Part shown: piece by piece, positions 18,619 through 47,525 of the stretch
Layout of the letters: each line of letters begins with the position of its first letter
How positions within the stretch are numbered: the first letter of the stretch is position 1
From: Candidatus Tanganyikabacteria bacterium
GTDB taxonomy: Bacteria; Cyanobacteriota; Sericytochromatia; S15B-MN24; VGJW01
DNA length: 64,000 nucleotides
NCBI GenBank assembly: GCA_016867235.1
Contig: VGJY01000003.1
Coordinates: 406 to 64,405 of the forward strand
Reading direction: 5' to 3'
Program-made: the position numbers and the translations under genes
Notes under the pieces: generated by a model
Told to the model about the DNA's origin: nothing
The model's input: only the letters and a program-made list of their open reading frames with translations
The model's database searches: none

Positions 18619-18742
18619 GGGTTCGATGATGCCTTGCGCCCGGCGCCCGCACCTAGCGCGGACTGGCCAAACCTGTCATAGCGCCGCTCACTTGACCTGG
18701 CCCCGGCTTACGTCCGCGGCCCCGTGCCTCACGTACGCGCTG

Positions 18743-18870
18743 ATAGCGGCGCTCAAATGACCTGGCGCCTATCGGACGCAGGCACGGAGGCCTGCGCCAC
18801 CGATGCAACGGGTGGGGCCGGCCTCCGTGCCGGCCGCGATGCCGGAGCGAAGTCATCAGAGCCGCGCTAT
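18743..18870. repeat. 128-bp dispersed repeat, copy A (100% identical to 32007..32134); contains a nested hairpin with loop ACGGAG
   Basis: Direct base-by-base comparison: atagcggcgctcaaatgacc...gagccgcgctat identical in both copies. A degenerate partial copy lies just upstream (18684..18742). Confidence 0.9.
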
Positions 18871-18964
18871 GAGTACGCTGCGGCCCGGGGCCTGTGGGCG
18901 CGCGCGGGGCGAGGCCAATTGAGCGGCGCTGTCAGCGCGGGCTGGCGGCTGCCAGCCGGCGGAA

Positions 18965-20518
18965 TCAGCCCTCGTGCTTGACGTAGACCGTCTGCCACTC
19001 GGTCCAGAAGTCGATTGCCGTCGGGCCCATCTCGCGGCCGCCCGTGCCCGAATCCTTGATGCCGCCGAACGGCATCTGGATCTCGCTGTAGATGGACGGG
19101 CAGTTGACGTGCAGCATCCCGGCCTCGGAGGCGCGGGCGTAGGCGAAGGCCGCCGAGAGATCCTTCGTGTAGATGGCGCCGGTGAGCCCGTACTCGACGC
19201 TGTTGGCCACGTCCAGGGCATCTTCCAGGCCGTCGGCCTCCAGGATCGACAGGACGGGCCCGAAGACCTCCTCGCGGTTGAGGGTGTGCTCCTTGCGCAC
19301 GCCCACCACGATGGTGGGTTCGAAGAAGTAGCCGTGCTCGTGCTCGGGGCGGCTCTGGGCCCGCTTGCCGCCGCACAGCACCTGGTTGCCCTCCTGCCTG
19401 GCCACGTCGACGTACTGCTGCGCCTTCTCGATGGCCCGGTCGTCGACCATCGGGCCCATCAGGATGCCGTCGGCAAAGCCGTTGCCGGTCTGCACGTTCT
19501 TGGCCTCGGCCAGCAGCTTCTCGACGAGCAGGTCCTTGACCTTGCGATCCACCACCACGCGGCTGGTGGCCGTGCAGCGCTGGCCGGTGCTGCCGAAAGC
19601 GCCCACCACGATGTCCTTCGCCGCCTTGTCGAGGTCGGCGTCGGGCATGACGATGCACGCGTTCTTTCCGCCCATCTCCAGTTGCACCTTCGCCAGGTGC
19701 TCGCTGGCCTTGCGGTTGATCAGCTTGCCCACCTCGGTCGACCCCGTGAAACTGATGGCCCGGACGGCCGGGTCGGTGACGATGGCCTCGCCCACCTCGG
19801 GGCCGCCATGCACGAGGTTGAGGACCCCGGCCGGCAGGCCGGCGTCCACCAGGGCCTCGACGAGCAACTGCGCGCACAGCGGCGTCTGCTCGGCGGGCTT
19901 GAATACCACCGTATTGCCGCAGACCAGGGCAGGGGCGACCTTCCAGGCGGGAATGGCGAACGGGAAGTTCCACGGCGTGATGATGCCGACCACGCCCTTG
20001 GGCCTGCGCTGCGTCCACGCGAACATCCCCGGCTGCTCGGACGGTATCGTGTGGCCCAGCAAGCGCCGCCCCTCGGCCGCGAGGTACTCCATCGCCGTCA
20101 GGCCGCGATTGATCTCGACCCGCGCCTCGGCGAGGACCTTGCCCTCTTCCCAGGTCAGGGCCTGTGCGAGTTCCTCGGCGCGCCCCCGCAGGGAAGCGAT
20201 GGCCTTTTGCACGATGGCCTGGCGCTGCGGCGCCGGCGTGGCGGCCCAGCCCTTGAGGGCTGCCCGGGCCGCGTCGAGCGCCTTCCGGACGTCCTCGGCG
20301 GTCGAGTCCGGGAAGATCGCGATGATCTCCCGCGAATCCGCGGGATTGCGATCTTCGAAGGTGCGGCCCGAGCCGCTGGCGACCCACTCGCCTCCGACGA
20401 GGTTGAGGTAAGTCTGCTGGACCTTCCCGCGCAGCGCGGTCGGGCCCGCCAGGGGAGTCGCAGTCGCCAAGGAAGACCTCCTGTAAGTAGAAACAACGGT
20501 CATTCTAGCTCCAGCCAA
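18965..20518 (-). CDS. NAD(P)-dependent aldehyde dehydrogenase
   Basis: Catalytic Cys (GQRCTA) and Glu (LEMGGKN) motifs; GSTEVG NAD-binding segment. Confidence 0.85.
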   Translation of the reverse strand: MAGARMTVVSTYRRSSLATATPLAGPTALRGKVQQTYLNLVGGEWVASGSGRTFEDRNPADSREIIAIFPDSTAEDVRKALDAARAALKGWAATPAPQRQAIVQKAIASLRGRAEELAQALTWEEGKVLAEARVEINRGLTAMEYLAAEGRRLLGHTIPSEQPGMFAWTQRRPKGVVGIITPWNFPFAIPAWKVAPALVCGNTVVFKPAEQTPLCAQLLVEALVDAGLPAGVLNLVHGGPEVGEAIVTDPAVRAISFTGSTEVGKLINRKASEHLAKVQLEMGGKNACIVMPDADLDKAAKDIVVGAFGSTGQRCTATSRVVVDRKVKDLLVEKLLAEAKNVQTGNGFADGILMGPMVDDRAIEKAQQYVDVARQEGNQVLCGGKRAQSRPEHEHGYFFEPTIVVGVRKEHTLNREEVFGPVLSILEADGLEDALDVANSVEYGLTGAIYTKDLSAAFAYARASEAGMLHVNCPSIYSEIQMPFGGIKDSGTGGREMGPTAIDFWTEWQTVYVKHEG

Positions 20519-20527
20519 GCGGCGGAG

Positions 20528-23281
20528 CTACTTGGCCGGCGCGGACCCCGGCCCGACCACCACCGTCAGCAGCTTTTCGGGCGCGAGGTACCGTCTGGCC
20601 AGACCCTGGAGCCGCTCGGCGGTCGCCGCGCGGATGAGGTCGTTCTGACGGTCGTAGTACTCGTAGCCCAGGCCGTACGCCTCGTACGCACCCAGGTTGT
20701 TCGCCAGCGCCACCGCTCGCTGATCGGCGATGGCCTGGCCGCCGATCAGGCGATCCTTGATGTGGCCGAGTTCATCGGCCGGCACGCCCTTCTCCCGGAT
20801 GTCGCGCCACTTGGCATGCAACTCGGCGATCGCCTCGTCGGTCTTCTCGGCGGCGACGCCGATGTAGAGGGAGAGGGCCCCCGCGCCCTGGAGGAGGCTC
20901 GCCATCCCGCCCGTGCTGTACGCCATCGGCTTGGTGTAGACCAGGTCGACGAAACAGCGGAAGCCCACGAGGCTCGACAGTACCCGCAGGTCCGTGTAGT
21001 CGGGATGGAGTCGGGTCACCGCAGGGGCCCCGACGATGATCTGGCTCTGCAGCTTGTCCATGGCTTTGCCCTGCCTGCCCAGGAGGGGCTGCGGCGGGGC
21101 CCCGGACAGTTCGGGGCCCGGCGCCCCGGAAGCCTGCCAGCTCGCGAACCGCGAGGCGGCCAAGATGCGCTCGAATTGCTGCTCGGTCAGGTCGCCCACC
21201 ACCGTCAGCACGCTGCGGCCCGGTTGCACCGCCGCCCGGTGGAACGCGACCAGGTCGGACCGCTCGATCGCGGAGACGCCCTCGGGCGTGCCCACGACGG
21301 GATGACGGTACGGCGACGCGGCGAAGATCGCGGCCGAGTAGGCGTCGCCGGCCTGGGCGTTGATGTCGTCGGCCCGGCGCTCCAGGCGGCTGACGGCGGA
21401 CGCCTTCTCCTTGGCGAACTCCGCCGGATCGATGATCGGAGCGGTCAGTAACTCGGAGAAGAGCGCGAGGCCGTCGCGGGCGTCCTCGGCGGCCAGCGTG
21501 AGCGAGCCGTACAGCAGGTCCCGATCCGCACCGATCGAGTAGTTGCCGCCCCACTCGTCGAAGCGCCTCGCGACCTCCTCCTGAGAGAGCTTGGCCGTGC
21601 CCTTCGGCAGCATGTCCGCCAGCAACTGCGCCGTTCCTTCGCGGCCCGGGGGATCGAAGGCCGAACCGGCCCGCGCGTGGAGCGCGATCCCCACCACGGG
21701 CCGACCAGGTCGCCGCTTGAAGAGCACCGTGAGGCCGTTGGGCAGCACGCGCTTGGCCACCGAAAACGCCGCCGCGGCGGGAGTCGGCGGCAGGAGCGCG
21801 TCGCCGGTCGGGACGTCGGCCTCGCCGGGGGCGAACGCCGCCTGGGAGAAATCCAGCCAGGCCGGCCTGTTCCCGCTTCCCGCCAGCGCGGCGACGGCCG
21901 CGGCGACGGCCGCCTCGTCGCCCGGCGCCGGCGCGTTGGTCTCCTCCGGGAGGGTCTGCACGGCCGTAAGGTTCTCCTTGACCAGGTACCGGGTCGCCAC
22001 GTCCGCCACCTCGGCGGCGCTCACCTGCTCGAAGCGGGCGAGCCAGTCGGTCTCGTAGCGGATGCCGCCGTACAGCGCCGATTCGCCGAGTTCCTGCGCC
22101 CGGCTCAAGGCCTCTTCGCCGGAGAAGAGCTGCAGCAGCCTCGCCTGGCGCTTGATGCGGGCGAGTTCGTCGGCCGAGATGCCTTCCTTGCGCAGCCTGG
22201 CCACCTCGCGCAGGATGGCCGCCTGGAGCTTGAAGGCATCTTCCGGGCGCTTCGGGTACGCCGAGAGGTACACCAGGCCCAGATCCTCGAGCGTGAAGGC
22301 GCTTGCCCCGACCTGCGAGGCCAGGGGTTCGCGTTCGACGACGGCCTGCCAGAGCCGGCTGGACGTGTTGCCCCCCAGCACCCTGGCCATCGCATCCAGT
22401 GGCCACCGGTCGGGATGCCGCCACCCGGGCACGACGAACGCCAGCGTGACCTCCGCCCGCTTGATCGGCTGGCGCTGCGTGAGTTCCTGGTAGCCGCGAA
22501 AGGCCGTCGGGAGCTTGGGGTGCTCGGGGAGCGCCGGGTTGCGCTTCCAGTGCTTGAAGGCCGCGCGCACCTTCTCCAGGGCCACAGCGGCTTCCACGTC
22601 GCCCGCGATGGCCAGCACCACGTTGTTGGGCGCGTACATCGCCTTGTAGAACTTCATGAAATCGTCGCGGCGCAAGCCGTTGAGGGTGGCGAAATTGCCG
22701 ATGACGGGCCGGGAGTAGGGATGCGGGCCGAACGCCAGGCGGAACGTCTCACGATAGGCCGCCGTACCTGGATTGTCGAGAAAGCGCCGCAATTCCTCGG
22801 TGACGACCTTCCTCTCCGCCTCGATGCCTTCGGGGGGCAACTGGGCGTTCTGCAGGATGTCCGCCAGCGAATCCAGCGCCAGGTCGAAATGCTCCTTGCC
22901 GACCACGTTGTAGTACTGGGTGCGGTCAAAGTAGGTGTTGGCCGAGTTCTGCCCACCCACGTGGAAGATGTCCAGCCGATCCTGGAGCGGCTTGCGCTTC
23001 TTCGTACCGCGGGCCGTCAGGTGCTCGAGGTAGTGCGAGTACCCCGAGAACCATTCGGGCTCGTCCTTCCCGCCCGCATGGACCCAGGCGTTGACGGCCA
23101 CGACCGGCGAGGCGTGATCCTCGACGATCACCACCCGGAGCCCGTTGGGCAGGGTGTGGTAGGACAGGGCCGGGGAGACGGCGACGGCGGCGGCAAACTT
23201 GGTGGTAGGCACGATCATCACAATCAACGAGAGGAAGACGAAGGCGGCAAGGCGGACATGGTCTGGCACTGGGCGGGACAT
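20528..23281 (-). CDS. Secreted M16 (pitrilysin/insulinase) family zinc peptidase, tandem M16 units
   Basis: 917 aa. Signal peptide. Inverted zinc-binding motif HYLEH (HxxEH) in the first unit; second inactive-type M16 unit. Confidence 0.85.
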   Translation of the reverse strand: MSRPVPDHVRLAAFVFLSLIVMIVPTTKFAAAVAVSPALSYHTLPNGLRVVIVEDHASPVVAVNAWVHAGGKDEPEWFSGYSHYLEHLTARGTKKRKPLQDRLDIFHVGGQNSANTYFDRTQYYNVVGKEHFDLALDSLADILQNAQLPPEGIEAERKVVTEELRRFLDNPGTAAYRETFRLAFGPHPYSRPVIGNFATLNGLRRDDFMKFYKAMYAPNNVVLAIAGDVEAAVALEKVRAAFKHWKRNPALPEHPKLPTAFRGYQELTQRQPIKRAEVTLAFVVPGWRHPDRWPLDAMARVLGGNTSSRLWQAVVEREPLASQVGASAFTLEDLGLVYLSAYPKRPEDAFKLQAAILREVARLRKEGISADELARIKRQARLLQLFSGEEALSRAQELGESALYGGIRYETDWLARFEQVSAAEVADVATRYLVKENLTAVQTLPEETNAPAPGDEAAVAAAVAALAGSGNRPAWLDFSQAAFAPGEADVPTGDALLPPTPAAAAFSVAKRVLPNGLTVLFKRRPGRPVVGIALHARAGSAFDPPGREGTAQLLADMLPKGTAKLSQEEVARRFDEWGGNYSIGADRDLLYGSLTLAAEDARDGLALFSELLTAPIIDPAEFAKEKASAVSRLERRADDINAQAGDAYSAAIFAASPYRHPVVGTPEGVSAIERSDLVAFHRAAVQPGRSVLTVVGDLTEQQFERILAASRFASWQASGAPGPELSGAPPQPLLGRQGKAMDKLQSQIIVGAPAVTRLHPDYTDLRVLSSLVGFRCFVDLVYTKPMAYSTGGMASLLQGAGALSLYIGVAAEKTDEAIAELHAKWRDIREKGVPADELGHIKDRLIGGQAIADQRAVALANNLGAYEAYGLGYEYYDRQNDLIRAATAERLQGLARRYLAPEKLLTVVVGPGSAPAK

Positions 23282-23288
23282 CCCGGGC

Positions 23289-23921
23289 TCAGGCGCCCGC
23301 CCCGGACGCCTCCTGGCGGCGCCGGCGGATGACGTCGTACTCGGGATCCCGGTAGAAGTGCGACTCGAAGGCGCCGGTCTTGCCCGAGTACTTGGTGTAC
23401 GTCTTCTGGCCGTACGGCAAGCGAGTGGGGTGGCCCAGGAAGAAGCACAGTTGCGCGATACGCACCCCCGGATACAGCGCGATGGGCACGCGGCTCACGT
23501 TGTGGAGTTCGAACGTGATGCTGCCGGCGAAGCCCGGATCGACGAACCCGGCGGTCGCGTGGATGAGCAGGCCGACCCGGCCCCACGACGATCTCCCCTC
23601 GACCCGCACGGAAATGTCGGCCGGCACGCGCACGAACTCCATGCTCGCGCCCAGCGCGAACTCCCCCGGATGCAGGATGAACGCCTTATCGGGCGCCACC
23701 TGGTAGTTGCGCATCAGCGGTGCGGCGTTTTCCTGGCCCCACGTGGGATCCAGGTGGCTGACGTTGGCCACGTCGACGACCTTGAAGTCGGTGCCCAGGC
23801 GGATGTCGACCGACGTCGGGCCGAACTGCTCGCGCGGGTTGACGATCGGCGTGATCACGATGCGGCGGGCCGTGTCGGGATCGGTCAGGCGGTCGAGGAG
23901 CTCCAGCTCGTTGAGGATCAT
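23289..23921 (-). CDS. dcd: dCTP deaminase
   Basis: MILNELELLDRL...; conserved SSWGRVGLLIHATAGFVDPGFAGSITFEL core. Start ATG 23921 overlaps the upstream gene's stop (ATGA). Confidence 0.85.
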   Translation of the reverse strand: MILNELELLDRLTDPDTARRIVITPIVNPREQFGPTSVDIRLGTDFKVVDVANVSHLDPTWGQENAAPLMRNYQVAPDKAFILHPGEFALGASMEFVRVPADISVRVEGRSSWGRVGLLIHATAGFVDPGFAGSITFELHNVSRVPIALYPGVRIAQLCFFLGHPTRLPYGQKTYTKYSGKTGAFESHFYRDPEYDVIRRRRQEASGAGA

Positions 23922-25030
23922 TCGCGAACTCCGAGGTGGCGGTGGACGCTCGCCGTCTCCAGGGACTTGAGCACCAGGGAGTCGAGTTGCAGGACGCGCC
24001 GGCCGTAGGCTTCCCACGGGTCGGCGCCGGCGGCCGCCTCGCGCAGCCAACCCACGCGCGAGCGCTCCCGGAACAGCCAGGCGCCGGCCAGGATCTGCGC
24101 TCCCGAGAGCGGCTCCTCCCGGAGACCCGCCAGCGCGCCGTAAACCGCTTCGGCTCCGGCAGCGGGGTCCTGCAGCACCCGCTCGCGCGCCGCCCGGATC
24201 CGCGCGAAGTCCTCGGTCGGTCGGGCGCTAGCCAGTACGTCGTCGGCCAGGCGCGCCGCGACGATCGCCTCCGCCGCGCCGGGTTCGGCCGCCGCCCAGT
24301 CGCCCGGCACGCCGCAGGTGGCGAGCAGGTTCCCCAATTCGGGGTACAGAGCGCCGCGAGTCGCGAGATCGGTCGCGACACCAGCGGCGCGATCCGCCAG
24401 GCCGGGCACCTGCCCGTGCACGCCGCGCTCCAGCAGCGAAAACAGGTAGGCCGGCCCGACCAACCGCGCGGCGGCCAGATCGCGGGCGGCGGGTTCGGCG
24501 ACACCGGGCGAACGCGCCGCCACGAGGCCGAAAACCAGCCGCGGCCAGGCCAGCGGCGCGGCCACCTGCGCGATCGGCAAGGCCAGGAAGCCGTCGTCGT
24601 CGAGATCCTGGTCTTCCGGCACCAGGATCACCGGCGGAATGGCCCCGTCCCCGGCCTGCTCGGACAGGAACTGATAGACCTCGGCGCGCACGGGAAGCCC
24701 CGGCAGTTTCCTCAGCGCCTGCTCCAGCCGCCTGAGGTCTTCGGCCGCGCCGGCGCAGCTCCCGGCGATCCCCTCGGCTCCCTGCGAGTCGCCTTCGAGC
24801 AGGCGCGGCACGTCGGTCCAGGATCCGGCGAGGCGATCGGTGATCGAGGCCAGCCGGGCCCGGAGGCGGGCCACCACCTGGCCCCCGCCCTGGCCCGCGG
24901 CGGATGCGAGCTGCTCGAGGACGGCGCCCCACCTGGCCACGCGCTCGAGCAGGTCGCACGCGCGAAGGGTCGCGAGGCGTCCGGCGACCTTGGCTGGCGG
25001 AACCCCGATCATCTGGGCGCTAATCGGCAA
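23918..25030 (-). CDS. Hypothetical protein (370 aa), translationally coupled to dcd
   Basis: Long ORF with a 4-nt stop/start overlap with dcd. No family recognised. Confidence 0.5.
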   Translation of the reverse strand: MPISAQMIGVPPAKVAGRLATLRACDLLERVARWGAVLEQLASAAGQGGGQVVARLRARLASITDRLAGSWTDVPRLLEGDSQGAEGIAGSCAGAAEDLRRLEQALRKLPGLPVRAEVYQFLSEQAGDGAIPPVILVPEDQDLDDDGFLALPIAQVAAPLAWPRLVFGLVAARSPGVAEPAARDLAAARLVGPAYLFSLLERGVHGQVPGLADRAAGVATDLATRGALYPELGNLLATCGVPGDWAAAEPGAAEAIVAARLADDVLASARPTEDFARIRAARERVLQDPAAGAEAVYGALAGLREEPLSGAQILAGAWLFRERSRVGWLREAAAGADPWEAYGRRVLQLDSLVLKSLETASVHRHLGVRE

Positions 25031-25178
25031 TGTGACATAACGGCAGCCCGCACATCCTAGCAGGATTCAGGCAGAACCGACAGATACGGTTCGGTCGTCT
25101 TACAGATCACGCCTCCGCCTTGCGCTAGCGCACAGAATCATCCCCCTCATTCCGGGTAGAATCAGCCGAGACAGCCGC

Positions 25179-27518
25179 ATGGACGCTTCAAGCACCAGGT
25201 GCCGACCGCCCTCCCGCCTCCGGAGGGCCTGGCCCGCGCTGGTCGTGGCGCTATTTCTCACCGGCTGCGGCTTCACGTCGGCATTCGACATCGCCAAGAA
25301 GCTGACGAGCACCAGCGAGTCCAATCGCCTCAAGCTCCTGCCGAGCTGGCCGCTCGGCCTGCGGGTCGAACTCGGCGAGGCCAAGATAGCCTGGGGGAAA
25401 GTGCAGAAGCAGCTGGATGACAAGATCGTCCAGTCCGGGGCGTCGGTCTCGGAGGATGCCTCGGGGGTCCCCGTCATCACGCCGCCCGCCACCGACATCC
25501 CGCCGGTCAAGCTGGGCGAGAAGCTGCGGGTCGACGCCACCACCAAGCAGGACATCGCCACCGTGTCGATCGGCATCCCGATCACCTCCCACCAGGTTCC
25601 GGGCGTGACCGTGAAGCTGTCGGACACGCCGGCCGGCCAGACGCTGTTTCCGTTCCCGCCGCCCATCGGCAACCAGACGCTCGCCAGCGCCAAGACCATC
25701 GCCGGCGCCCAGGCGAGCTCGATCCAGTTGCCCCAGCCCGCCTCGCTCGACCGCACCGAGACCCAGACCCAGAACATCCAGGACGTGCAGTCGGCGACCC
25801 TCGCGTCGGGCAGCCTCACCGTCCCGCTGGTCAACGACACGGCCGGCACGCTGACGGTGACGGTCACGCTCAAGGACGGCACGAACCAGACCCTGGGCAC
25901 CGACTCCAAGTCCCTGGGCCCGCGCTCGACCGGGCAGATCCTCATCGACATCTCCGGCAAGACCATCACGGCCCCGCTGGTCACCACGATCCAGACCCAG
26001 GGCAACATCCCGCAGGGCACCACGCTCGACAAGATCAACCCGGACACCGACAAGGTCTCGGCGGGCCCGATCGGCCTCTCGATGGACGCCACGCAGGCCA
26101 ACGTCCACATCGCCGAGCGCCAGGGCTCCAACCCGAGCGGCGCCGGTTACGACGCCAACTTGAAGGATATCGTCCAGTCCTTCGACATCTCGGGGCAGAT
26201 CCCTTCCGACTCGGGCATCAAGCGAATCACGTCCGTCAAGGTGAGCTCCGGCTCGCTCGACCTGGACATGACCAACAACTTCGGCGTGGACACCGACCTG
26301 CGCATCCGGTTCGACGGCCTGACGGGCATTTCCACGGTATCCGGCTCGATCGTCCGAAACACGCAAGACACGGTGACCCTGGAAGTCAACGCCAACAACC
26401 GGGCGACCGCCTCGATCCCGCTCGCCGGCTGCATCATCACGCCCAACGCGCAGACCGGCAAGATCACCGCCGTCGTCTCGCCGCGCACCCTCGATACCGA
26501 CAACGACCGCTCCCACCCCCGGCCCGTCCCGCCGGCCAAGAACTACGTCCTGGTCAACAAGACCGACTCGCTGGCCGGCAGCGTGACGATGACGCCGATG
26601 GCCTTCGAGTACGTCGAGGGCGACTTCGACCGCACGCAGCCCCTGCCGAACTCGGACGTGCCCGTATCCCTGCCCAAGGAGTTCACCGACACCGGCATCC
26701 AGCCGGCGCGCGTCTCGATCAAGCTGACCATCAAGAACCAGAGCATGATCAACGGCAAGCTCATCCCGGTGATGACGGGCATCGCGACCGGCGGCACGCA
26801 GATACCCATCACCTTCGACGCCGAGACCATCGGGAGCCGGGTGGCGTTCAACGGCGACTTCACGGGCGCGACCTCGACGGGCGCCACCGCCGACACGGTC
26901 ATCGAGATCAACGAGAAGAACTCGAACATCGTCTCGGCCCTGCAGGCCGGGATCACCACCTTGCGGTTCGGCGGCAGCACCAAGGTCACCGGCAACGGCA
27001 TCAAGGTCACCCAGGACGACGTCATCGGCGGCAAGGTCGACATCGAAATTCCCCTGGCGGTCATCGTCCAGGCTTTCGGGCCGGGGTCGGCGCGCAAGCC
27101 GTTCGACCTCGAGCCCGCCAATCCGCTCGATATCGACGATTCGACCCGCGACCAGATCGACAAGTACCTCAAGGGCGCGGCGATCGAGTTCCGGGTGGAA
27201 AACGGCTGGGGCCTCCCGCTGAACCTGGGCATCCTGATGTCCACCAATTCGGTGGCGGTGGGCCCCTACGCGCCCGGGGCGGCGGCCATCTCGCGCACCA
27301 TCTCGCTGGGCAGCGGCCCCGTCACGCTCTCCACCGTCGACCTCACCGAGGAAGAGGCGAAGAAGCTCGGCTCGCTCAAGTGCCTGGGCGTCCGCATCGG
27401 CTCTCCCGGCACGGGCGGCAAGATCGTGGAGCTCATGAAGTCTAGCCAGCTCAAGATCCGCATCGCCGTGCGCCTGAAGCTGCAGATCGGGCCGGAGCTG
27501 GCCGGGGGGCTGAAATGA
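25179..27518 (+). CDS. Large Thr/Ser/Gly-rich lipoprotein (779 aa), probably cell-surface exposed
   Basis: Signal peptide plus lipobox LTGC. Beta-strand-rich low-charge composition. Stop overlaps the start of the next gene (ATGA at 27515-27518). Confidence 0.7.
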   Translation: MDASSTRCRPPSRLRRAWPALVVALFLTGCGFTSAFDIAKKLTSTSESNRLKLLPSWPLGLRVELGEAKIAWGKVQKQLDDKIVQSGASVSEDASGVPVITPPATDIPPVKLGEKLRVDATTKQDIATVSIGIPITSHQVPGVTVKLSDTPAGQTLFPFPPPIGNQTLASAKTIAGAQASSIQLPQPASLDRTETQTQNIQDVQSATLASGSLTVPLVNDTAGTLTVTVTLKDGTNQTLGTDSKSLGPRSTGQILIDISGKTITAPLVTTIQTQGNIPQGTTLDKINPDTDKVSAGPIGLSMDATQANVHIAERQGSNPSGAGYDANLKDIVQSFDISGQIPSDSGIKRITSVKVSSGSLDLDMTNNFGVDTDLRIRFDGLTGISTVSGSIVRNTQDTVTLEVNANNRATASIPLAGCIITPNAQTGKITAVVSPRTLDTDNDRSHPRPVPPAKNYVLVNKTDSLAGSVTMTPMAFEYVEGDFDRTQPLPNSDVPVSLPKEFTDTGIQPARVSIKLTIKNQSMINGKLIPVMTGIATGGTQIPITFDAETIGSRVAFNGDFTGATSTGATADTVIEINEKNSNIVSALQAGITTLRFGGSTKVTGNGIKVTQDDVIGGKVDIEIPLAVIVQAFGPGSARKPFDLEPANPLDIDDSTRDQIDKYLKGAAIEFRVENGWGLPLNLGILMSTNSVAVGPYAPGAAAISRTISLGSGPVTLSTVDLTEEEAKKLGSLKCLGVRIGSPGTGGKIVELMKSSQLKIRIAVRLKLQIGPELAGGLK

Positions 27519-28951
27519 ACCTGCGGCTTGCGATTGCGGGTGCCGCACGCCCGGCGCTCGCGATCCTGTCCGGCGCGATCGGCCTGGCCCTCGCGGCCGC
27601 GCCCGCCCGTGCGGCCACCACCAGCGCCAGGGCCCTCGGAATGGGGAATGCCTACGGCGTGGTCGCCATCGAGGCGGACATGGCGGCGTGGAACCCGGCG
27701 CTCCTGGGCATCAGCCGGCCGGGCACCCCGGTCTTCGCCGTGCAGTTGCCGTCGGCGAACCTCGGCATGGGCAACAACTTCCTGTCCCTGGACGCGCTCA
27801 ACGGCCTGCTCCCCGACGACAGCGGAAACTCGCGTACCTTCGGCGACGCCACCATGGAAACCCTCGTGGGCAGCATGAGCGACCGCGGCTGGGAACTCCT
27901 GGCGGTCGATTCCGGCGCGCGCCTCTTCGCGCTGGCGATCCCCCCGCTGCGCACCTCGTTGCACGCTCAGGCCGACGTAGACTTCCAGGGCCTGGGCCTG
28001 CCGCGCGGCCTGGTGGAGTTGCTTCTGCAGGGCAACACGGAGCAGCGCAACATCAATCTCGACGGCCTCAAGGGCGCTTCCGCGGCGGTCGTGGCGTCGG
28101 CGGGCCTGTCCCATGCCGTGCCGCTCCCGATGTTCTCGGAGCGCCCGAGCGCCATCGGCGCGACGTTCCGCTACCTGCACGGCCTCGGCTGGCTCAACGT
28201 CGAGGACGCCTCCGGCTCGATCCTCACCGTGGACCCGGAAGGCCGCATATCGGCCGACGCGGGCTTGCGCTACCTGCTCACGTATCCCGGCGACTGGATC
28301 CGGACGGGCAACGGCCTGGCCTGGGACCTCGGCCTCGCGACGCAATGGAACGAGGCCCTCACCTGGGGCCTGACGGTCGGCAACCTGGGCTACATCAAGT
28401 GGAACAAGGTCTCCGACAAGGTCACCACCGCCAAGATCTCCCCGCGCAGCCTGGGCCTGTCGTACGAGGCCAAGCCCGACGGCAGCGAGCAGACCCAGGG
28501 AACGCCCCAGGACCCGTTCAAGGATGCCTTCAAGGACTCGGTCGGGCCGGCGGACGGCAAGAGCGACATCGACGGGCGGCTCCCGCCCTATGCCCGCCTG
28601 GGCTTCGCCTGGCGCGGCGCGTTGGGCCTGCCGCCGATCAGCCGGAGCCCCCTGGCGTTCAACACGCCGCCGTTGCCGATCCTGGTGGCCGCCGACATCG
28701 TGCAGGGATTCGGCAACGGCTACGGCGTGTCCACCACGCCCGAACTGCACGTGGGAGCCGAGGCCAGGCCCCTCTTCCCGATGATGCCGCTGCGGGTGGG
28801 CTTCTCGTTCGGCGCGCGCTCCATGGTGAGCATGGGCGCGGGCCTGGACTTGAGCTTCTACAAGCTCGATCTGGCGTTCGGCACGATGAACGGGGTATTT
28901 GGAAACACGAAGGGCGTCTATGCGGCGCTCACCAGCAACCTCGCATTCTAG
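27515..28951 (+). CDS. FadL/TodX-family outer-membrane hydrophobic-compound channel (putative)
   Basis: Signal peptide. N-terminal segment ALGMGNAYGVVAIEADMAAWNPALLG resembles the FadL hatch region (GLGRAYSGEGAIADDA..NPA). C-terminal ...NLAF ends in an aromatic residue, typical of OM beta-barrels. Confidence 0.65.
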   Translation: MNLRLAIAGAARPALAILSGAIGLALAAAPARAATTSARALGMGNAYGVVAIEADMAAWNPALLGISRPGTPVFAVQLPSANLGMGNNFLSLDALNGLLPDDSGNSRTFGDATMETLVGSMSDRGWELLAVDSGARLFALAIPPLRTSLHAQADVDFQGLGLPRGLVELLLQGNTEQRNINLDGLKGASAAVVASAGLSHAVPLPMFSERPSAIGATFRYLHGLGWLNVEDASGSILTVDPEGRISADAGLRYLLTYPGDWIRTGNGLAWDLGLATQWNEALTWGLTVGNLGYIKWNKVSDKVTTAKISPRSLGLSYEAKPDGSEQTQGTPQDPFKDAFKDSVGPADGKSDIDGRLPPYARLGFAWRGALGLPPISRSPLAFNTPPLPILVAADIVQGFGNGYGVSTTPELHVGAEARPLFPMMPLRVGFSFGARSMVSMGAGLDLSFYKLDLAFGTMNGVFGNTKGVYAALTSNLAF

Positions 28952-28955
28952 CCGG

Positions 28956-29546
28956 ATGCCGGAAGGCGCACCCCTGGCCGACGAACTGCGGCGCCTCGTC
29001 GACCATCACCGGGTCCACGGCGCCAAGGGCCTCGATGCCGCCATCTGCGGCGCCATCGAGTCGGCGCCGGCTTTCTCGTTCCAGGACCTCCACGATGCCG
29101 GCCGCGCCCTCATGGAGGCGGTCGACACGGCTCTTTCCAGCAGGGAATGCAAGGACAAGCGAGCGCTCCAGCGCGGCTGGTTCGTCGGCATGGTGGCCGG
29201 GGCGGCGCGGCGGGGATTCGCGCCCGAGGAACTGGCCTACGTGATGGCATACAACGGCCTCCTGGTGGCCGTCGACGTCGGGATGATCCTGGGCGTCTAC
29301 GCCTTCTCCCTGGCCTGGGGCATGGGCCAGGCGCATGTCCGCCTGGGCTGGGATCCGGCCATCAAGCCGAAGTTGCACGAGGCGATGCTCCGTGGCCTCG
29401 CGGACGCCGAACGGCATCTGGGCGACGAGGTGCAACCCCAGGAACGCAAGTGGATGCGCGAGAATCTGGTCACCGGGTGGCGGGCCGGCGCGGTGCTGGC
29501 CAGGTTCCTGCCCGGGGCGCCGCTGGGGGCGCCGGCAAGCCCATGA
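28956..29546 (+). CDS. Hypothetical protein (196 aa) in the lipoprotein/FadL/KS operon
   Basis: ATG 6 nt after the FadL stop. Its stop overlaps the KS start (ATGA at 29543-29546). No family recognised. Confidence 0.5.
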   Translation: MPEGAPLADELRRLVDHHRVHGAKGLDAAICGAIESAPAFSFQDLHDAGRALMEAVDTALSSRECKDKRALQRGWFVGMVAGAARRGFAPEELAYVMAYNGLLVAVDVGMILGVYAFSLAWGMGQAHVRLGWDPAIKPKLHEAMLRGLADAERHLGDEVQPQERKWMRENLVTGWRAGAVLARFLPGAPLGAPASP

Positions 29547-30757
29547 CCTGCCCGCCGGCCGATCGGGCTCCCATGCGCATCGCGATCACCGGCATGGGGG
29601 CACTCTCGCCGCTCGGGGTCGGCGTCGCCGCCCTCTGGGATGGCCTCCTGGCGGGCCGCCACGGCATCTCGCACGTGAAGGCCTTCGACACCGCCCCGTA
29701 CGAATGCCACATGGGCGGCGAAGTGCCGTCCTTCGACCCCCTGGAGTACATGCCGGCCGACATGGCGCGCGCCGTCGGCCGCACCACCCAGTTCGCCATC
29801 GCCGCGTCCCGGATGGCCCTGGCGGACGCGGGCCTGGCGGACGCCTTCGAACCGGCACGCACGGGCATCTGCCTGGGCACGACCATGGGAGAGGTGCAGG
29901 AAATCGAGGCTCACTACACGCGAGGCGAAGTGGGGCGCCTGGGCCGGTATCCCGCGGCGCAGATAGCCGCCGCCACCGCCCGCGCGCTGCGCCTGGGCGG
30001 TCCCAACGCCGTGCTGCCGACCGCCTGCGCGGCCGGCAACTACAGCATCGGCCACGCCGTGGACCTCCTGCGCGACGGGCGCGCCGCCGTCATGCTGGCC
30101 GGCGGGGTGGACGTCATGGCCGAGATCCAGTACGTGGGCTTCCTGCGCCTCCGGTCGATGGCGCCCGACGTGCCGCGACCATTCTCGGCCGGGCGCGAAG
30201 GCATGATGGTATCCGAAGGGGCCGGGGTCCTGGCGCTCGAACCGCTGGAAGCCGCCAGGCGCCGCGGGGCCAGGGTCTACGCCGAGGTCCTCGGCTACGG
30301 CCTGTCGTGCGACGCCCACCACATGACGGCGCCGCACCCGGACGGCGCCGGCGCCCTGGCCGCCATGGCCGCGGCCCTGGCCGACGCCGGCCTCACCCCC
30401 GGCGACGTGGCCTACATCAACGCCCATGGCACCGGGACCCCGGCCAACGACAAGGTCGAGACCCTGGCCATCAAGCAATTGCTCGGGGAGGCGGCCTACC
30501 GCGTGCCGGTCACGAGCTGCAAGTCCGCCCTCGGGCATGCCATGGGCGCGGCGTCGGCCCTCGAAGCGATCGTGACGGCGCTGATCATCCACCACGGCCG
30601 CATTCCGCCCACCCAGAACTTCCTGGGCCCGGACCCCGACTGCGATCTGGACTACGTGACCGGCGGGCCGAGGGATGCCGACGTGCGCGTCGCCCTCTCC
30701 AACTCGTATGCCTTCGGCGGCAACAACGCCTGCCTGGTGCTCGGGAGGCCCGCGTGA
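29543..30757 (+). CDS. Beta-ketoacyl-ACP synthase (KS-alpha, FabF/type II PKS-like, catalytically complete)
   Basis: Active-site Cys (PTACAAGN) and both His (DAHHMTAPH, INAHGTGT, LGHAMGAAS). Alternative ATG at 29573. Confidence 0.9.
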   Translation: MTCPPADRAPMRIAITGMGALSPLGVGVAALWDGLLAGRHGISHVKAFDTAPYECHMGGEVPSFDPLEYMPADMARAVGRTTQFAIAASRMALADAGLADAFEPARTGICLGTTMGEVQEIEAHYTRGEVGRLGRYPAAQIAAATARALRLGGPNAVLPTACAAGNYSIGHAVDLLRDGRAAVMLAGGVDVMAEIQYVGFLRLRSMAPDVPRPFSAGREGMMVSEGAGVLALEPLEAARRRGARVYAEVLGYGLSCDAHHMTAPHPDGAGALAAMAAALADAGLTPGDVAYINAHGTGTPANDKVETLAIKQLLGEAAYRVPVTSCKSALGHAMGAASALEAIVTALIIHHGRIPPTQNFLGPDPDCDLDYVTGGPRDADVRVALSNSYAFGGNNACLVLGRPA

Positions 30758-31785
30758 GCGCGCGGGTGGTCGTGACCGGCCTCGGCGTCGTGTCGCCGGC
30801 GGGGGTCGGGTGCGAGGCGCTCCGGGGACCGGGACCCCGGGCCGGGGAAGGGCCGGCTTCGACACCCTTCGACGCCGCCGCGATCCTGGGACCCAAAGGC
30901 TTGCGCCTGCTTGATCGCGCCACGCTCATGACGATGGTCGCCGGTCATCTGGCGCTGGAGCAGGCCGGCTTGCTGGACCGGGCGCCCGCCTGGGCCGGAA
31001 TGCGAGCGCCGGGAATCGTGCTCGGCACGTCGTTCGGCTCGCTCGCCTCCATCACCGGCTACGTGAAGACCCGCCTGGCCCAGGGCGCGGCCGCGCTCAA
31101 CCCGAGCCTCTTCCCCAACACCGTGATCAACTCCCCGGCCAGCCAGTGCGCCATCCGCTTCGGCCTGCGAACGCTGTGCACGACGCTCGCGGCCGGCTGG
31201 GCCTCGGGCGCCGAGGCGATCTCCTACGCGGCCGACGCCCTGCGGCGCGGGCGAGCCGACATCGTGCTGGCCGGCGGCGTCGAGGAAGCCTCGGCGGACA
31301 ACCTGCTGGTATACGCGGATCTCGGCCTCGACCCGCCGGCCGGCTTCGGCGAAGGGGCGGCATTGCTGGTCCTGGAGCGCGAAACGGCCGCCCTGGAGCG
31401 CGGCGCGGCGCCCCTCGCGGAATTAGCGGGATGCGGGTCGGGCTTCGCGGGCGACGGCCCGCTCTCGGCTGCCCTGGCGCGAGCGGTGGCCGAGGTGGGA
31501 CTGCCTTCGGTCGACCTGCTGATCACCGGCGGCAACGGCTCGCCGGATCTGGACGATGCGGAACACGAGGTGTTTGCCGGTTGCGCGGCGCCCCGCGTCG
31601 CGCTCAAGGAGCGCCTCGGCGAATGCGACGGAGCCGGCGCGGCCCTTGCGGCCGCCTTCGGCGTCCTCGCTTGCTCGCGGCGGGCGGCCTCCGGGTATGA
31701 TACGGAGGTGGAAGCGGCCCTGGTCTCGGCGCCGAGCTACACCGGGCACGCCGCGGCGCTCGGCTTCAAGAGGTGGGACGGATGA
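30754..31785 (+). CDS. KS-beta / chain-length-factor-like ketosynthase paralogue lacking the catalytic Cys
   Basis: GTG 30754 overlaps the KS-alpha stop (GTGA), with GGGAGG RBS 6 nt upstream. Cys position reads TTLAAGW (Cys to Leu). HGTGT is replaced by ITGGNGSP. Confidence 0.8.
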   Translation: MSARVVVTGLGVVSPAGVGCEALRGPGPRAGEGPASTPFDAAAILGPKGLRLLDRATLMTMVAGHLALEQAGLLDRAPAWAGMRAPGIVLGTSFGSLASITGYVKTRLAQGAAALNPSLFPNTVINSPASQCAIRFGLRTLCTTLAAGWASGAEAISYAADALRRGRADIVLAGGVEEASADNLLVYADLGLDPPAGFGEGAALLVLERETAALERGAAPLAELAGCGSGFAGDGPLSAALARAVAEVGLPSVDLLITGGNGSPDLDDAEHEVFAGCAAPRVALKERLGECDGAGAALAAAFGVLACSRRAASGYDTEVEAALVSAPSYTGHAAALGFKRWDG

Positions 31786-32009
31786 ACAGCGCGATGGCCG
31801 ACGAGATCCGGCAGATCATCGCCGAGATCGCCGAGGTGGACCCCGCCGAGATCGGCGACGACACCCCGTTGCGCGAGGCGCTCAACATCGACTCGATGAG
31901 CGTCCTGGAAATCATGAGCGCCATCGAGGCGAAGTACGAGCTGAAGATCCCGGACGAAATGAGCAAGGAGTTCACCTCTCTGGGGTCGATCGTCGCGGCC
32001 GTCTCATAG
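31782..32009 (+). CDS. Acyl carrier protein
   Basis: About 75 aa with LNIDSMSVLEIM phosphopantetheine-attachment Ser motif. ATG overlaps the KS-beta stop (ATGA). Confidence 0.85.
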   Translation: MNSAMADEIRQIIAEIAEVDPAEIGDDTPLREALNIDSMSVLEIMSAIEAKYELKIPDEMSKEFTSLGSIVAAVS

Positions 32010-32134
32010 CGGCGCTCAAATGACCTGGCGCCTATCGGACGCAGGCACGGAGGCCTGCGCCACCGATGCAACGGGTGGGGCCGGCCTCCGTGCCGGCCGC
32101 GATGCCGGAGCGAAGTCATCAGAGCCGCGCTATC
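32007..32134. repeat. 128-bp dispersed repeat, copy B (100% identical to 18743..18870), starting within the ACP stop codon
   Basis: Direct sequence comparison. Same nested hairpin (stem GGCACGGAGGCC / GGCCTCCGTGCC; inner loop ACGGAG). Confidence 0.9.
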
Positions 32135-33572
32135 ACAGGGTGCCGCCGCCTCCGCCTGACGGCGCGCTGGCGCTCTCGGCCGGCCGGCCATCCAGGTAGG
32201 AGCGCACGCCAGCGGCGATCGCCCGCGCCAGGACCTGCTGGTAGGCGGGATCGACGAGTTGCCGCTCTTCGGCCGCGTTGGACAGGAAGCCCATCTCGAC
32301 CAGCGTCGCGGGGATGCGATCGTGCCGCAGCACGAAGAGCCGGGCCTGCCGGACTCCCCGGTCCGGCCGGCCGGTGGCGGCCACCAGTCGCTCGTGGACG
32401 GCCCGGGCGAGCGGCAGGCCGGGATCGTGCCGGTAGTAGGTTTCGACGCCCGTTGCCTCGGGCGTCTCGGCCGAATTGCAGTGCAGGCTGATCACGGCGG
32501 CCGGCCCGTGGCTGGCGATCAGCGCTTCCCGGTCGGCCAGCCGCAGCTCGCCGTCGAAGGAGCGCGTCAGCACGGGCTGGAGCCCCTCGGCCCTAAGCTC
32601 CTTCGCGAGGTGGCGGGCCACGCCGAGGGCCACCTGGCTCTCGGACGTCCCGGCGCCGCCCAGGGCACCCGGATCGTAGCCGCCGTGGCCGGCGTCCACC
32701 ACGACCACCGGCCGGCCGGCATCGAGCGCTGGAGCCTGCTCGATGCGCAGCGTCAAGCTCCGGCCGTCGGGGCTGCGGGTCGAGTCGAGGGCCAGGCGCC
32801 CGCCAGCCAGATCGAGGGCGAGCGTCCAGGCTTCCGGCTCGCGGCGCAGGGTGACGCGTTCGACCGCACCCTTCGCCCGCGGGGCCGCCACGGCCAGAGA
32901 GGAGCGGGGAATTCTCACGGTGAGGCGCCGGGGCTCGAGTTCTTCCAGCACCCAGGCCATCAGCGGCTCCCGACCGCGTATCTCGACGGTGGTCGCCCCC
33001 GAGTGCAACCGCCTGATCCGCATCCCGTCGATCACCTGGGGGACCGAAGGCCACGGCACGCTGCGCGTGGCTTCTCGCTCGCCCGACGCCTCCTCGCCGC
33101 TCGCCCAGGCGTGCGACCGCGTGGGGCCGGGCGGCCCGATGAATGCCGCGGGGCTCAGCGGGGCCGGGGGACCGATCGGCTCGCCGTGCCGGCGACCCGG
33201 TCCCGCATCCCCTGCGTCCACCCAGGCAAGCCGCGCCACCAGGCGCCGGCCGCCCTCGATCACGTCGGTGCGCAGGGCGGCGTCGCCGTCCAGATCCAGC
33301 ACGACGCGCAGCGTCCGGCTCTCCGGGTGGCGGGCGATCCTGACCTGCCGCACGCCGCCATGCTCCACCGGGATCAACGTGGGGGCCTGGCGATCGGCCA
33401 GGTCGGCATCCTGCAGATCCAGGATGCGGCGCTCCGGCTCGCGCAGCGTGCTCTGCCGCAGCACGATCGGCCTATCCGCCTCGATGACCAGCTGTCCGTC
33501 GCGCCAGGCCACGCTGCACGAGGCCGGTGTGGAGACGGCAGCCGCCGCAAGGATGGCGAACAAGGCAGACAC
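32133..33572 (-). CDS. N-acetylmuramoyl-L-alanine amidase (AmiC-type, Amidase_3) with N-terminal AMIN-like domains
   Basis: Catalytic domain VVVVDAGHGGYDPGA ... SLHCNS ... TLVEMGFLSN. Signal peptide. Confidence 0.85.
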   Translation of the reverse strand: MSALFAILAAAAVSTPASCSVAWRDGQLVIEADRPIVLRQSTLREPERRILDLQDADLADRQAPTLIPVEHGGVRQVRIARHPESRTLRVVLDLDGDAALRTDVIEGGRRLVARLAWVDAGDAGPGRRHGEPIGPPAPLSPAAFIGPPGPTRSHAWASGEEASGEREATRSVPWPSVPQVIDGMRIRRLHSGATTVEIRGREPLMAWVLEELEPRRLTVRIPRSSLAVAAPRAKGAVERVTLRREPEAWTLALDLAGGRLALDSTRSPDGRSLTLRIEQAPALDAGRPVVVVDAGHGGYDPGALGGAGTSESQVALGVARHLAKELRAEGLQPVLTRSFDGELRLADREALIASHGPAAVISLHCNSAETPEATGVETYYRHDPGLPLARAVHERLVAATGRPDRGVRQARLFVLRHDRIPATLVEMGFLSNAAEERQLVDPAYQQVLARAIAAGVRSYLDGRPAESASAPSGGGGGTL

Positions 33573-34704: not shown

Positions 34705-35310
34705 GTGGACAGGACCGTCACCGAGGAACGCCTGCGAATCGGCTTCCTGCTCGACACGATCTGGTTCGAGATGAAGCACCAGCCCGTACGCTCCAAGGAG
34801 CAGACCCTCAAGCTGCTCGTCGACCTGCTGGCCGCGGAAGGGATCCCGTACGCCATCATCGGCGGCATGGCCCTGCAGGTCCACGTGGCGGATCCGCGGA
34901 CCACGGTGGACGTCGACGTGGCCCTCCTGGCGCGCGAGGACGTCCCGCGCACCGCGCTCGAGGCGCTGGGCTTCAAGCACACCGGCTCCTTCGAGCATTC
35001 CGAGAATTTCCGCAGCCCGGACGGGATCATGGTCCAGTTCAGCGGCGAGCCCGAGTGGCAGGGGGTGGTCCGCCGGGCCGAGATCCATGACGCGTTCGAC
35101 CGGCGCATCCCTTTCATCTCCCCCATCGACCTGGTGCGGGCCAAGCTGCGGGCGGCCGCGGATCCGGGTCGCCGCAGGTCCAAGCGGCTGATCGACGTGG
35201 CCGACATCACGACGCTTCTGGAGGAGCACGCCGACCTCGCGTCGCTCCTGACGGAGGACGAAATGGCGCGCATCGCCCGCCTGCCCGCCGAAATCGGCAG
35301 TCCCCTCTAG
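34705..35310 (+). CDS. Minimal nucleotidyltransferase-fold protein (putative)
   Basis: 201 aa. IIGGMALQVHVADPRTTVDVDVAL fits the GG...[DE]xD pol-beta-type NTase signature. Confidence 0.5.
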   Translation: MDRTVTEERLRIGFLLDTIWFEMKHQPVRSKEQTLKLLVDLLAAEGIPYAIIGGMALQVHVADPRTTVDVDVALLAREDVPRTALEALGFKHTGSFEHSENFRSPDGIMVQFSGEPEWQGVVRRAEIHDAFDRRIPFISPIDLVRAKLRAAADPGRRRSKRLIDVADITTLLEEHADLASLLTEDEMARIARLPAEIGSPL

Positions 35311-41182: not shown

Positions 41183-41192
41183 AGCACATGAC

Positions 41193-41210
41193 GCCGGCAC
41201 GGAGGCCGGC
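41193..41210. terminator. GC hairpin GCCGGC-ACGGAG-GCCGGC immediately after the thiL stop; member of a recurring hairpin family with loop ACGGAG
   Basis: Palindromic 6-mer stems flanking the loop ACGGAG. Same stem-loop at 47508..47525 and, with a GCAGGC/GCCTGC stem, inside both 128-bp repeats. Confidence 0.35.
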
Positions 41211-47501: not shown

Positions 47502-47507
47502 TCCGAG

Positions 47508-47525
47508 GCCGGCACGGAGGCCGGC
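47508..47525. terminator. GC hairpin GCCGGC-ACGGAG-GCCGGC 7 nt after the tatC stop (same family as 41193..41210)
   Basis: Identical 18-mer to 41193..41210. Confidence 0.35.

Follow-up and report, generated by a model that had tools for sequence, protein, structure and literature searches.

A 126-bp miniature inverted-repeat transposable element with a REP-doublet core, inserted twice around the KS/CLF/ACP region of a Tanganyikabacteria contig

In the 64,000-nt stretch of contig VGJY01000003.1 from a Candidatus Tanganyikabacteria bacterium (the window), two identical non-coding repeats lie on either side of a 13.1-kb segment carrying dcd, M16 and aldehyde dehydrogenase (AldDH) genes and a lipid operon for a ketosynthase (KS), a chain-length factor (CLF) and an acyl carrier protein (ACP). 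This arrangement raises the question of whether the repeats delimit the segment as a mobile or amplifiable unit or came to lie around it separately. The analysis indicates that the two repeats are very probably independent insertions of a 126-bp non-autonomous element, a MITE (short for miniature inverted-repeat transposable element), which is scattered in the host genome and moved in trans, and that they are neither the ends of a composite transposon nor an assembly artefact nor a canonical terminator. The assignment as a MITE is firm: the element has defined inverted ends, 3-bp target duplications, dispersed copies whose recovered bases are identical, a nested insertion and a filled site to set against an empty one, and its conceptual excision restores the end of the ACP gene.

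Positions 18743–18870 and 32006–32133 of the window agree at 128 of 128 nucleotides by sequence reading, by a repeat finder (family D2) and by string comparison, with a start-to-start spacing of 13,263, and similarity stretches to 131 nt with one mismatch (18740–18870 versus 32003–32133). An identity of 128 nt within 64 kb cannot be a product of chance, although the 12-mer GGCACGGAGGCC by itself is without significance (six matches versus 1.9 expected, with three of 100 shuffles reaching six). A first-pass annotation had reported identical 128-bp direct repeats, which is borne out, and had placed the second copy at 32007–32134, which is one base too high. The repeated unit proper is a 126-bp palindromic element, TAGCGGCGCTC...GAGCCGCGCTA, at 18744–18869 and 32007–32132. 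The identity continues for one base past each end and the next base differs in a matched way (G/G around copy A, C/C around copy B) because the flanks are duplications of TGA and TCA, respectively. The features of the two copies are as follows.

18744–18869, plus strand: MITE copy A, 126 bp, identical to copy B, with terminal inverted repeats at 18744–18769 and 18844–18869 and an end-to-end hairpin
18741–18743, unstranded: left target-site duplication of copy A (TGA), the flanks reading ...GCGCTGA, element, TGAGTACG
18870–18872, unstranded: right target-site duplication of copy A (TGA), read from the same flanks
32007–32132, plus strand: MITE copy B, 126 bp, whose opening TAG has become the ACP stop codon
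32004–32006, unstranded: left-hand TCA of the copy B target duplication and at the same time the final sense codon (Ser) of the ACP gene in its truncated form
32133–32135, unstranded: right-hand TCA of the copy B target duplication, which doubles as the minus-strand TGA stop of the AMIN/Amidase_3 gene

[quoted passage not shown] The long imperfect palindrome annotated earlier in each copy is accordingly real, the entire element forming one hairpin with a folding energy as RNA of −77.8 kcal/mol (z = −5.6); on the two strands the values are −77.8 and −77.0 kcal/mol, with z of about −5.5, and none of 200 shuffled sequences was equally stable. The element is 70.6% G+C, compared with 68.9% for the window, and is non-coding, the only open reading frames (ORFs) that touch the 126 bp being frame artefacts. 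No Rfam family matched the element: searches of the whole window at the gathering threshold and of the locus at E ≤ 1 gave only tRNAs and two meaningless miRNA matches. No sigma-70-like promoter was found at the element.

Matched 3-bp flanks are present in all five complete elements that were recovered, namely TGA/TGA for copy A and TCA/TCA for copy B, for an older element in the window and for two copies on metagenome contigs (L125 and L129; loci outside the window are given by L numbers), all of which are described below. Three further left ends (L122, L126 and L127) also abut TGA. The middle base is G or C; it differs among copies and is always the same within one copy, which is the pattern of a target duplication and not of a fixed element end. 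The consensus before insertion at all sites is 5'-C-T(G/C)A-S-3', in which the central 3 bp, TSA (S being G or C), are duplicated. A duplication of TA, as in the IS630/mariner type, was considered and rejected; it would require the same 8-bp context everywhere, with the context of copy A the reverse complement of that of copy B, a coincidence for which a 3-bp duplication has no need.

Copy B lies at the junction of two convergent genes.

31782–32009, plus strand: acyl carrier protein gene (NCBI protein MBM3266160.1), with seven codons lost to copy B
32133–33572, minus strand: AMIN + Amidase_3 (AmiC-type) gene, intact, its stop codon regenerated by the duplication

The earlier statement that copy B starts inside the ACP stop codon is correct, the stop TAG at 32007–32009 being the first three bases of the element. 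The ACP of the window ends ...LGSIVAAVS at this TAG, and reading in frame from the right-hand TCA of copy B gives S-QGAAASA followed by a stop codon. All eight closest ACP homologues (71–83% identical) extend past the end of the window protein, six of them with a seven-residue tail ending in ASA and the other two with tails of five and ten residues. Removal of copy B and one TCA on paper therefore restores a normal ACP end with a tail of exactly the expected length, the reconstructed empty site at the ACP end being GTCTCACAGGG. The orthologous site is uninterrupted in one relative (L134, GCA_040960315.1), where it reads atcTCAgag and the ACP and amidase genes overlap convergently by 21 nt; in another (L136, JGI 3300056725) the two genes overlap by 4 nt, again without the element. 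Copy B would thus have parted two genes that once overlapped tail to tail, leaving the amidase intact. The shortened ACP is predicted to be probably still functional, the seven lost residues being only loosely conserved among homologues. Its stop codon now stands at the foot of a very stable hairpin.

Copy A lies within a second, older member of the same family, in the spacer between the AldDH gene and a family 4 glycosyltransferase (GT4) gene, both on the minus strand.

18679–18743, plus strand: left half of the older family member, with the terminal inverted repeat match TAGCGCCGCTCACTTGAC and its left TCA duplication at 18676–18678
18873–18931, plus strand: right half of the older family member, with its right TCA duplication at 18932–18934
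17395–18618, minus strand: glycosyltransferase (Glyco_trans_1_4) gene, the spacer between its start and the AldDH stop (18965) being 346 nt long, 259 nt of it taken up by the nested elements

A degenerate partial copy had been annotated just upstream of copy A. The related sequence is present there, but it is not partial: it is the left half of a complete element that copy A has split, the right half lying at 18873–18931. After removal of copy A and one TGA the older element measures 124 bp and ends in TAGCGCCGCTCACTTGACC and, as the reverse complement, CAGCGCCGCTCAATTGGCC. It aligns both with the young element and with its own reverse complement, refolds end to end (−48.7 kcal/mol as DNA, z = −5.4) and shares the ends of the young element without any recognisable units of the repetitive extragenic palindromic (REP) kind described below. 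The two halves, their own TCA/TCA duplication and the refolding together show that copy A inserted at a cTGAg site in the apical loop of the older member. A read-through transcript into the GT4 gene would carry two nested hairpins. The exact empty site for copy A could not be aligned, the AldDH–GT4 spacer of the relatives being too diverged. Copy A, copy B and the older member are the only three elements in the window.

Further copies were found by scanning JGI metagenome contigs with a pattern combining the 11-nt end and the core of the element, which gave at least 11 matches; five of the 11 listed are chance matches in coding sequence. The scan yielded at least six further insertion sites on contigs of Ga0194112, Ga0194119 and Ga0194120, where the flanks are unrelated to the window and the element, as far as recovered, does not differ from the window copies at any base. 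Complete copies are present in L125 and L129, and in L132 bases 6–126 are followed by a right-hand TGA. In L125 (464–1816) a cTCAg site within a transposase gene of the IS5/IS1182 type (DUF772 + DDE_Tnp_1) has received the element, and beyond the insertion the frame of the gene continues. With the window copies the tally is at least eight young sites and one old site. The Ga01941xx contigs are very probably from the same community as the window organism because a Lake Tanganyika metagenome-assembled genome (MAG; L099) bears a Ga0194126 contig name; NCBI records the window's proteins under Candidatus Tanganyikabacteria / Sericytochromatia, a lineage that has been described from that lake (PMC8245535). 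The first-pass suggestion that a MITE- or REP-type mobile element and recent transposition lie behind the perfect identity is thus supported.

Several of these contigs show irregular junctions. At L132:681–845 the first five bases of the copy are missing, and a 17-bp direct repeat, TGAGGGATCCAAAGCAC, takes the place of the 3-bp one around it. Seemingly the left end received a copy of 14–15 nt from the right flank, which might reflect aberrant transposition, repair or a quirk of the assembly. L122:163–405 and L126:1605–1815 have different left flanks, and both join element bases 1–88 to the same sequence, CTCAGGATTGATCAC..., the break falling inside the right-hand REP unit. The joined sequence corresponds to the last 47 codons, at the 3' end, of an ORF resembling a transposase gene (...GGHIKYNGPPGWQTLG...KK, then stop). 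Either an insertion sequence has repeatedly targeted the hairpin or an interrupted MITE has itself moved. L122:406–3418 is a 3,013-bp insertion sequence that ends in inverted repeats of 23 nt (TATAGCGTCAAAACTCGGTTGGA) and contains ORFs of 265 and 691 aa, for which the sole family match is a weak one to IS66 (E = 2 × 10−4). One of its ends abuts sequence identical to window 53979–54040, the end of a Fic-domain gene; past 54040 the window differs from L122, which indicates a strain-level rearrangement there.

The interior of the element belongs to a different class of repeat. Element positions 34–92 are two inverted units of the form (7-bp G+C stem)-ACGGAG-(stem')-CCAC, or GTGG-stem-CTCCGT-stem on the other strand, and single units of the same family occur elsewhere in the window.

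18777–18835, unstranded: core of copy A, two REP units head to head, 18777–18800 on the plus strand (CGCAGGC-ACGGAG-GCCTGCG-CCAC) and 18812–18835 on the minus strand (GGCCGGC-ACGGAG-GCCGGCC-CCAC), from a hairpin scan and DNA folds
32040–32098, unstranded: core of copy B, the same inverted REP pair, 32040–32063 on the plus strand and 32075–32098 on the minus strand, from the hairpin scan
41192–41215, plus strand: solo REP unit with loop ACGGAG, followed by a 14-nt tandem array at 41204–41362
47507–47530, plus strand: solo REP unit that matches the right-hand MITE unit exactly, with the convergent tatC gene on one side and a 92-aa ORF on the other
59908–59931, plus strand: solo REP unit with the sister loop AGGGAC, from the hairpin scan

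The solo units all lie in short intergenic spacers, two of the three directly past the stop codon of a gene. The array at 41204–41362, between an AIR-synthase-like gene and recA, comprises 11.4 copies of the consensus GGCCGGAGCCACTG and grows from the 3' half of the solo unit at 41192. In L032 (Acidobacteriota), L096 (Omnitrophota) and L101 (a delta proteobacterium), too, REP units are followed by comparable tandem arrays of the REP 3' half, which suggests that such arrays are a recurrent slippage or processing product of the REP.

A scan for GGCACGGAGGCCKGCSCCAC in one genome per species gave at least 120 loci (L002–L121, 873 kb), with several matches in many genomes from widely separated groups, in MAGs labelled as at least six phyla. 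The hairpin was found in Verrucomicrobia (OH_PDB_75, Opitutaceae), Planctomycetota (SMAG_U4729, Planctomycetales), Binatia, Acidobacteriota, Rhodospirillales (bin_346, Telmatospirillum), Noviherbaspirillum, Desulfobaccales and Omnitrophota, the last with two units on one contig (L096); Desulfobacterota and Alpha- and Betaproteobacteria are among the labels. Some single matches in a genome are coding coincidences, such as those in an IS110 transposase (L091) and a flavoprotein GxGxxG motif (L018). Across the 873 kb of listed loci, perfect 7-bp hairpins are followed by CCAC in 227 cases, by CTAC in 43 and by any other tetramer in about 25. The loop is ACGGAG, the form searched for, in 114 cases and AGGGAC, which lies outside the search pattern, in 58, positions 2 and 6 of the loop being exchanged between the two in a compensatory way. 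Stem positions left free in the pattern covary (C-G 82 and A-T 45 at one, C-G 85 and G-C 45 at another), with few mismatches. The REP hairpin is absent from about 50 kb of sequence of the ∼80%-identity relatives of the window organism (L134–L141), and the exact core sequence had no match in a literature search or in the supplements of PMC3733652.

REP units of this type flank genes for REP-associated tyrosine transposases (RAYTs). Screening for ORFs flanked by REP units identified a Y1_Tnp ORF in a Desulfobaccales genome (L054:6765–7304, Pfam E = 3.7 × 10−12), preceded by GTGGGGCAGGCCTCCGTGCCTGCC and followed by GGCGGGCACGGAGGCCCGCCCCAC; its HUH motif is DHVHAL and its tyrosine motif YIINNP. 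Homologues flanked by the same units are encoded at L028:5686–6210 (61% identity) and, in Planctomycetota, at L033:200–685 (55%), and a partial homologue at L058:6604–6795 has one adjoining unit. The flanking units are inverted, and they are identical in L054 and L028 although the two proteins share only 61% identity. The core is therefore a REP of the GTAG super-family with its RAYT, a known class: REPs tagged GTAG or GTGG and tied to RAYTs are established (PMC3733652, PMC3337134), and GTGG-tagged units have been described in Opitutus terrae as family GTAG-20 (PMC3733652). What is unusual is that the hairpin is nearly constant across phyla while the RAYTs diverge to 55–61% identity.

With the element so described, the bracketing of the 13.1-kb segment can be weighed. 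Two identical direct 126-bp repeats 13.1 kb apart could delimit a functional unit, either a composite transposon whose cargo is the KS/CLF/ACP operon together with dcd, M16 and AldDH, or a segment that recombination between the copies has recently duplicated, inverted or excised. MITE pairs that mobilise the DNA between them are known, for example in Acinetobacter integrons (PMC10969869), and an independent Logan assembly of SRR7985589 contains a contig close to the segment in size. This 13,124-bp contig carries the ACP gene and ends 26 nt into copy B, an amidase-side contig ends 25 nt into copy B from the opposite side, and the far end of the 13,124-bp contig would, by arithmetic and not by direct sight of it, fall near window 18906, inside the nested cluster. 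A short-read assembler, however, yields just such a contig between two unresolved repeats. A composite transposon would have left one duplication around the whole, but the outer flanks differ, with TGA to the left of copy A and TCA to the right of copy B, and each copy has a duplication of its own; exchange between the copies would have left hybrid flanks. The segment is thus not a unit, because either event would leave unlike flanks and yet the duplication of each copy matches (TGA/TGA and TCA/TCA). The order M16-dcd-...-DUF5723-KS-CLF-ACP, then across the copy B border amidase-cNMP-binding-GidB, is kept in L136 and L134, and the order KS...dcd-M16-AldDH, then across the copy A border GT4-acetyltransferase-...-HisRS-PspA-AAA, is kept in L140 and L141, with an element-free AldDH–GT4 spacer of 182 nt in L140. 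Since relatives without the element keep the gene order over both borders, both joins are ancestral and the assembly is validated as well. Genes inside and outside the segment are ordinary chromosomal ones (HisRS, RecA, RNase Y, TatC, PPDK and others), and no transposase or RAYT gene lies within the 64-kb window. A functional unit is accordingly a very remote prospect and the bracketing is coincidental. The special tie to the segment proposed in the first-pass annotation falls with the separate intact duplications, the at least six sites elsewhere and the conserved borders; the same annotation had named dozens of intergenic copies without association to the segment as the mark of a plain REP family, and multiple copies without such a link are indeed found, although 'dozens' is not a countable figure here. 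Its idea of the repeats as recombination substrates holds to the extent that RecA-dependent deletion or duplication between 126-bp direct repeats could occur in principle; the matched duplications show that these two copies have taken part in no exchange, and there is no sign that such an event has occurred. That the identity reflects a collapsed or mis-joined repeat is scarcely credible. The window comes from a short-read MAG contig (65,652 bp), the repeat is multicopy and another assembler broke there, but JGI contigs of three samples and the Logan contigs show the same sequence with the same ends, both joins agree with synteny in the relatives, and the ACP reconstruction is exact to the base. 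Independent assemblies and synteny thus exclude the assembly collapse that had been raised earlier.

Two readings of the element itself also have to be considered. One, compatible with a MITE origin, is that the hairpin is kept because it terminates transcription, stabilises mRNA 3' ends or insulates neighbouring genes from one another. It folds very stably from either strand, roughly half of the eight young insertions are at or next to a stop codon or the 3' end of a gene (copy B, L125 and L126 clearly, L122 and L129 possibly), and such roles have been proposed for REPs (PMC3733652) and MITEs (PMC10969869). The canonical features of the terminator suggested earlier are missing, though: no T/U tract follows the hairpin, no Rho-independent terminator-like site was found at either locus, and there is no Rfam match. 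Copies also lie inside a transposase gene and inside another element, and the relatives do without it. The 3'-end bias is read as target preference combined with selection, not as function, because TGA stops are simply the commonest tolerated TSA targets at 69% G+C and the duplication regenerates the stop. A retained function of this kind is considered unlikely. The other reading, somewhat less probable again, is that the element is a REPIN (REP doublet forming hairpins), an inverted REP pair copied as single-stranded DNA by a RAYT (Y1/HUH) with no DDE enzyme involved. Two inverted GTGG-tagged hairpins do indeed make up its centre. Y1_Tnp genes have this hairpin on both sides in L054, L028 and L033, a partial gene in L058 has it on one side, and the window contains solo members of the family at 41192, 47507 and 59908. 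However, conservation reaches 33–34 nt past each REP unit to the inverted ends, so that the conserved unit is 126 bp and not a doublet of ∼58 nt, and all recovered bases of the eight young copies match across it. Single-strand transposition of the IS200/IS605 type by HUH/Y1 enzymes inserts beside a fixed short sequence and leaves no target duplication, in contrast to the matched 3-bp duplications in five of five complete elements with a middle base that varies among copies. Moreover, the older member has the element ends without recognisable REP units, and the window contains no RAYT.

Independent insertion of a MITE remains the preferred reading, and the enzyme that moved it can be suggested only in outline. 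The element ends would be recognised by a DDE-type transposase that a full-length insertion sequence provides in trans, and a 3-nt staggered cut by this enzyme would give rise to the 3-bp TSA duplication. The best guess for this helper is the IS1031 group of the IS5 family because a 3-bp duplication at TNA is the signature of that group, which inserts at TNA with an exclusive 3-bp repeat and for which the reported ISLrh site is TGA (PMC12016507). Judged from the length of the duplication and the target alone, this family assignment is a lead that falls a little short of an even chance. As for the REP pair, it may have been captured inside a DDE-type MITE. A possible, though tentative, account is that the element is a REP doublet (REPIN) caught in this way and now spreading also by cut- or copy-and-paste with target duplication, the REP coming from a REP-RAYT lineage with a near-invariant 24-nt hairpin in MAGs of six or more phyla and with RAYTs at 55–61% identity.

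Several observations weigh against the MITE reading or its details. An autonomous parent with the same ends was not found in the window, the fetched loci or viral contigs. The element ends start TAG (TAGCGG...) and are unrelated to the single IS1031-group end compared, which starts GAAC (GAACCTGTCTAGTATCT, PMC12016507). The element is G+C-rich (70.6%) at G+C-rich sites, whereas prokaryotic MITEs are 'typically AT-rich' (PMC10969869), and its core is a REP doublet, a structure normally credited to mobilisation by RAYTs. The copy tally of at least eight young sites is a lower bound drawn from metagenome contigs and the window, not from the whole MAG, and that the extra copies, which sit on metagenome contigs, belong to the same population as the window is an assumption.

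Candidates for the parent were examined and rejected. The single viral-contig match of the pattern scans is a chance match in coding sequence. A protein search with the transposase-like ORF remnant of L122/L126 gave only that fragment and one 79-aa relative; with its ...GGHIKYNGPPGWQTLG... motif the remnant presumably resembles the C-termini of IS4/Tn5-type transposases. The 3-kb insertion sequence that cuts the L122 remnant has ends that share just TAGCG..TCAAA with the MITE, and no parentage is claimed for it. The IS5/IS1182-type transposase gene of L125 is interrupted by the element and lacks its ends, and is thus a victim.

Comparison with known systems places the element as ordinary in kind, with a modestly unusual hybrid architecture in its REP-doublet core. 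Like the prokaryotic MITEs Correia, Chunjie and QMITE (PMC10969869) it is small, within the size range of about 50–500 bp given for the class, and non-coding, with terminal inverted repeats, target duplications, many dispersed copies, a stable stem-loop and nested insertions, and it enters or adjoins genes without destroying operons. Unlike them it is G+C-rich in both element and target, contains an interior REP doublet instead of a decayed transposase gene, and has no related autonomous insertion sequence in the loci searched. The IS1031 group (ISLrh; PMC12016507) shares the 3-bp duplication at TNA, here TGA or TCA, but its GAACCTG... ends differ from TAGCGG..., and no DDE_Tnp_1 parent with the latter ends was found in the loci searched. 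With the REP/REPIN-RAYT systems of the GTAG super-family (PMC3733652, PMC3116915, PMC3337134) the element has in common the inverted hairpins, the 5' GTGG tag, the 7-bp G+C stem, the conserved loop, a core unit that flanks Y1_Tnp genes in other genomes and solo units downstream of genes; it departs from them in a mobile unit larger than the doublet, with its own inverted ends and target duplications, and in a hairpin nearly invariant over many phyla. Composites flanked by MITEs, as in Acinetobacter integrons (PMC10969869), likewise have two identical direct copies around a gene block, whereas here each copy has its own duplication and the block is ancestral, syntenic and without cargo-like content. 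The likeness to the IS1031 group extends to the PIF/Harbinger-Tourist type of eukaryotes.

The order 779-aa protein, DUF5723 (FadL/TraF-like), ∼195-aa protein, KS, KS-like (CLF) and ACP (window 25179–32009) is kept in L134, L136 and L140, and the AMIN-amidase gene converges on and overlaps the ACP gene in the contigs that reach it (L134 and L136). A glycosyltransferase/acetyltransferase-like block between AldDH and HisRS (window 16415–18618) is present in the window and in L140/L141 and absent from L138/L139, an indel of about three genes beside the copy A site. An AbiEii-like nucleotidyltransferase gene (type IV toxin family) at 34705–35310 lies between the cNMP-binding gene and a 152-aa ORF, and syntenic L136 has no gene there.

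Sericytochromatia are non-photosynthetic relatives of the cyanobacteria and are, to our knowledge, known from metagenomes only. The present locus documents to the base a recently active MITE family in this group, with a clear 3-bp TSA target for which TGA stops are often the landing sites. It also removes a tempting over-reading, in that the KS/CLF/ACP lipid operon is not on a mobile or amplifiable island. Elements of this kind break short-read assemblies of these MAGs and are thus relevant to binning and annotation. The most interesting thread, beyond the original finding of two repeats, is the cross-phylum REP-RAYT hairpin. Near-identical across phyla, with the same tag and a compensatory loop and beside diverged RAYTs, it is well suited to asking how RAYTs recognise hairpins and whether REP-RAYT systems move horizontally. 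If the tentative account given above is true, it would imply horizontal spread of REP-RAYT between phyla, contrary to the vertical, lineage-specific picture of REPIN-RAYT inheritance, in which these systems are described as lineage-specific and mostly vertically inherited (bioRxiv 10.1101/2022.05.22.493013).

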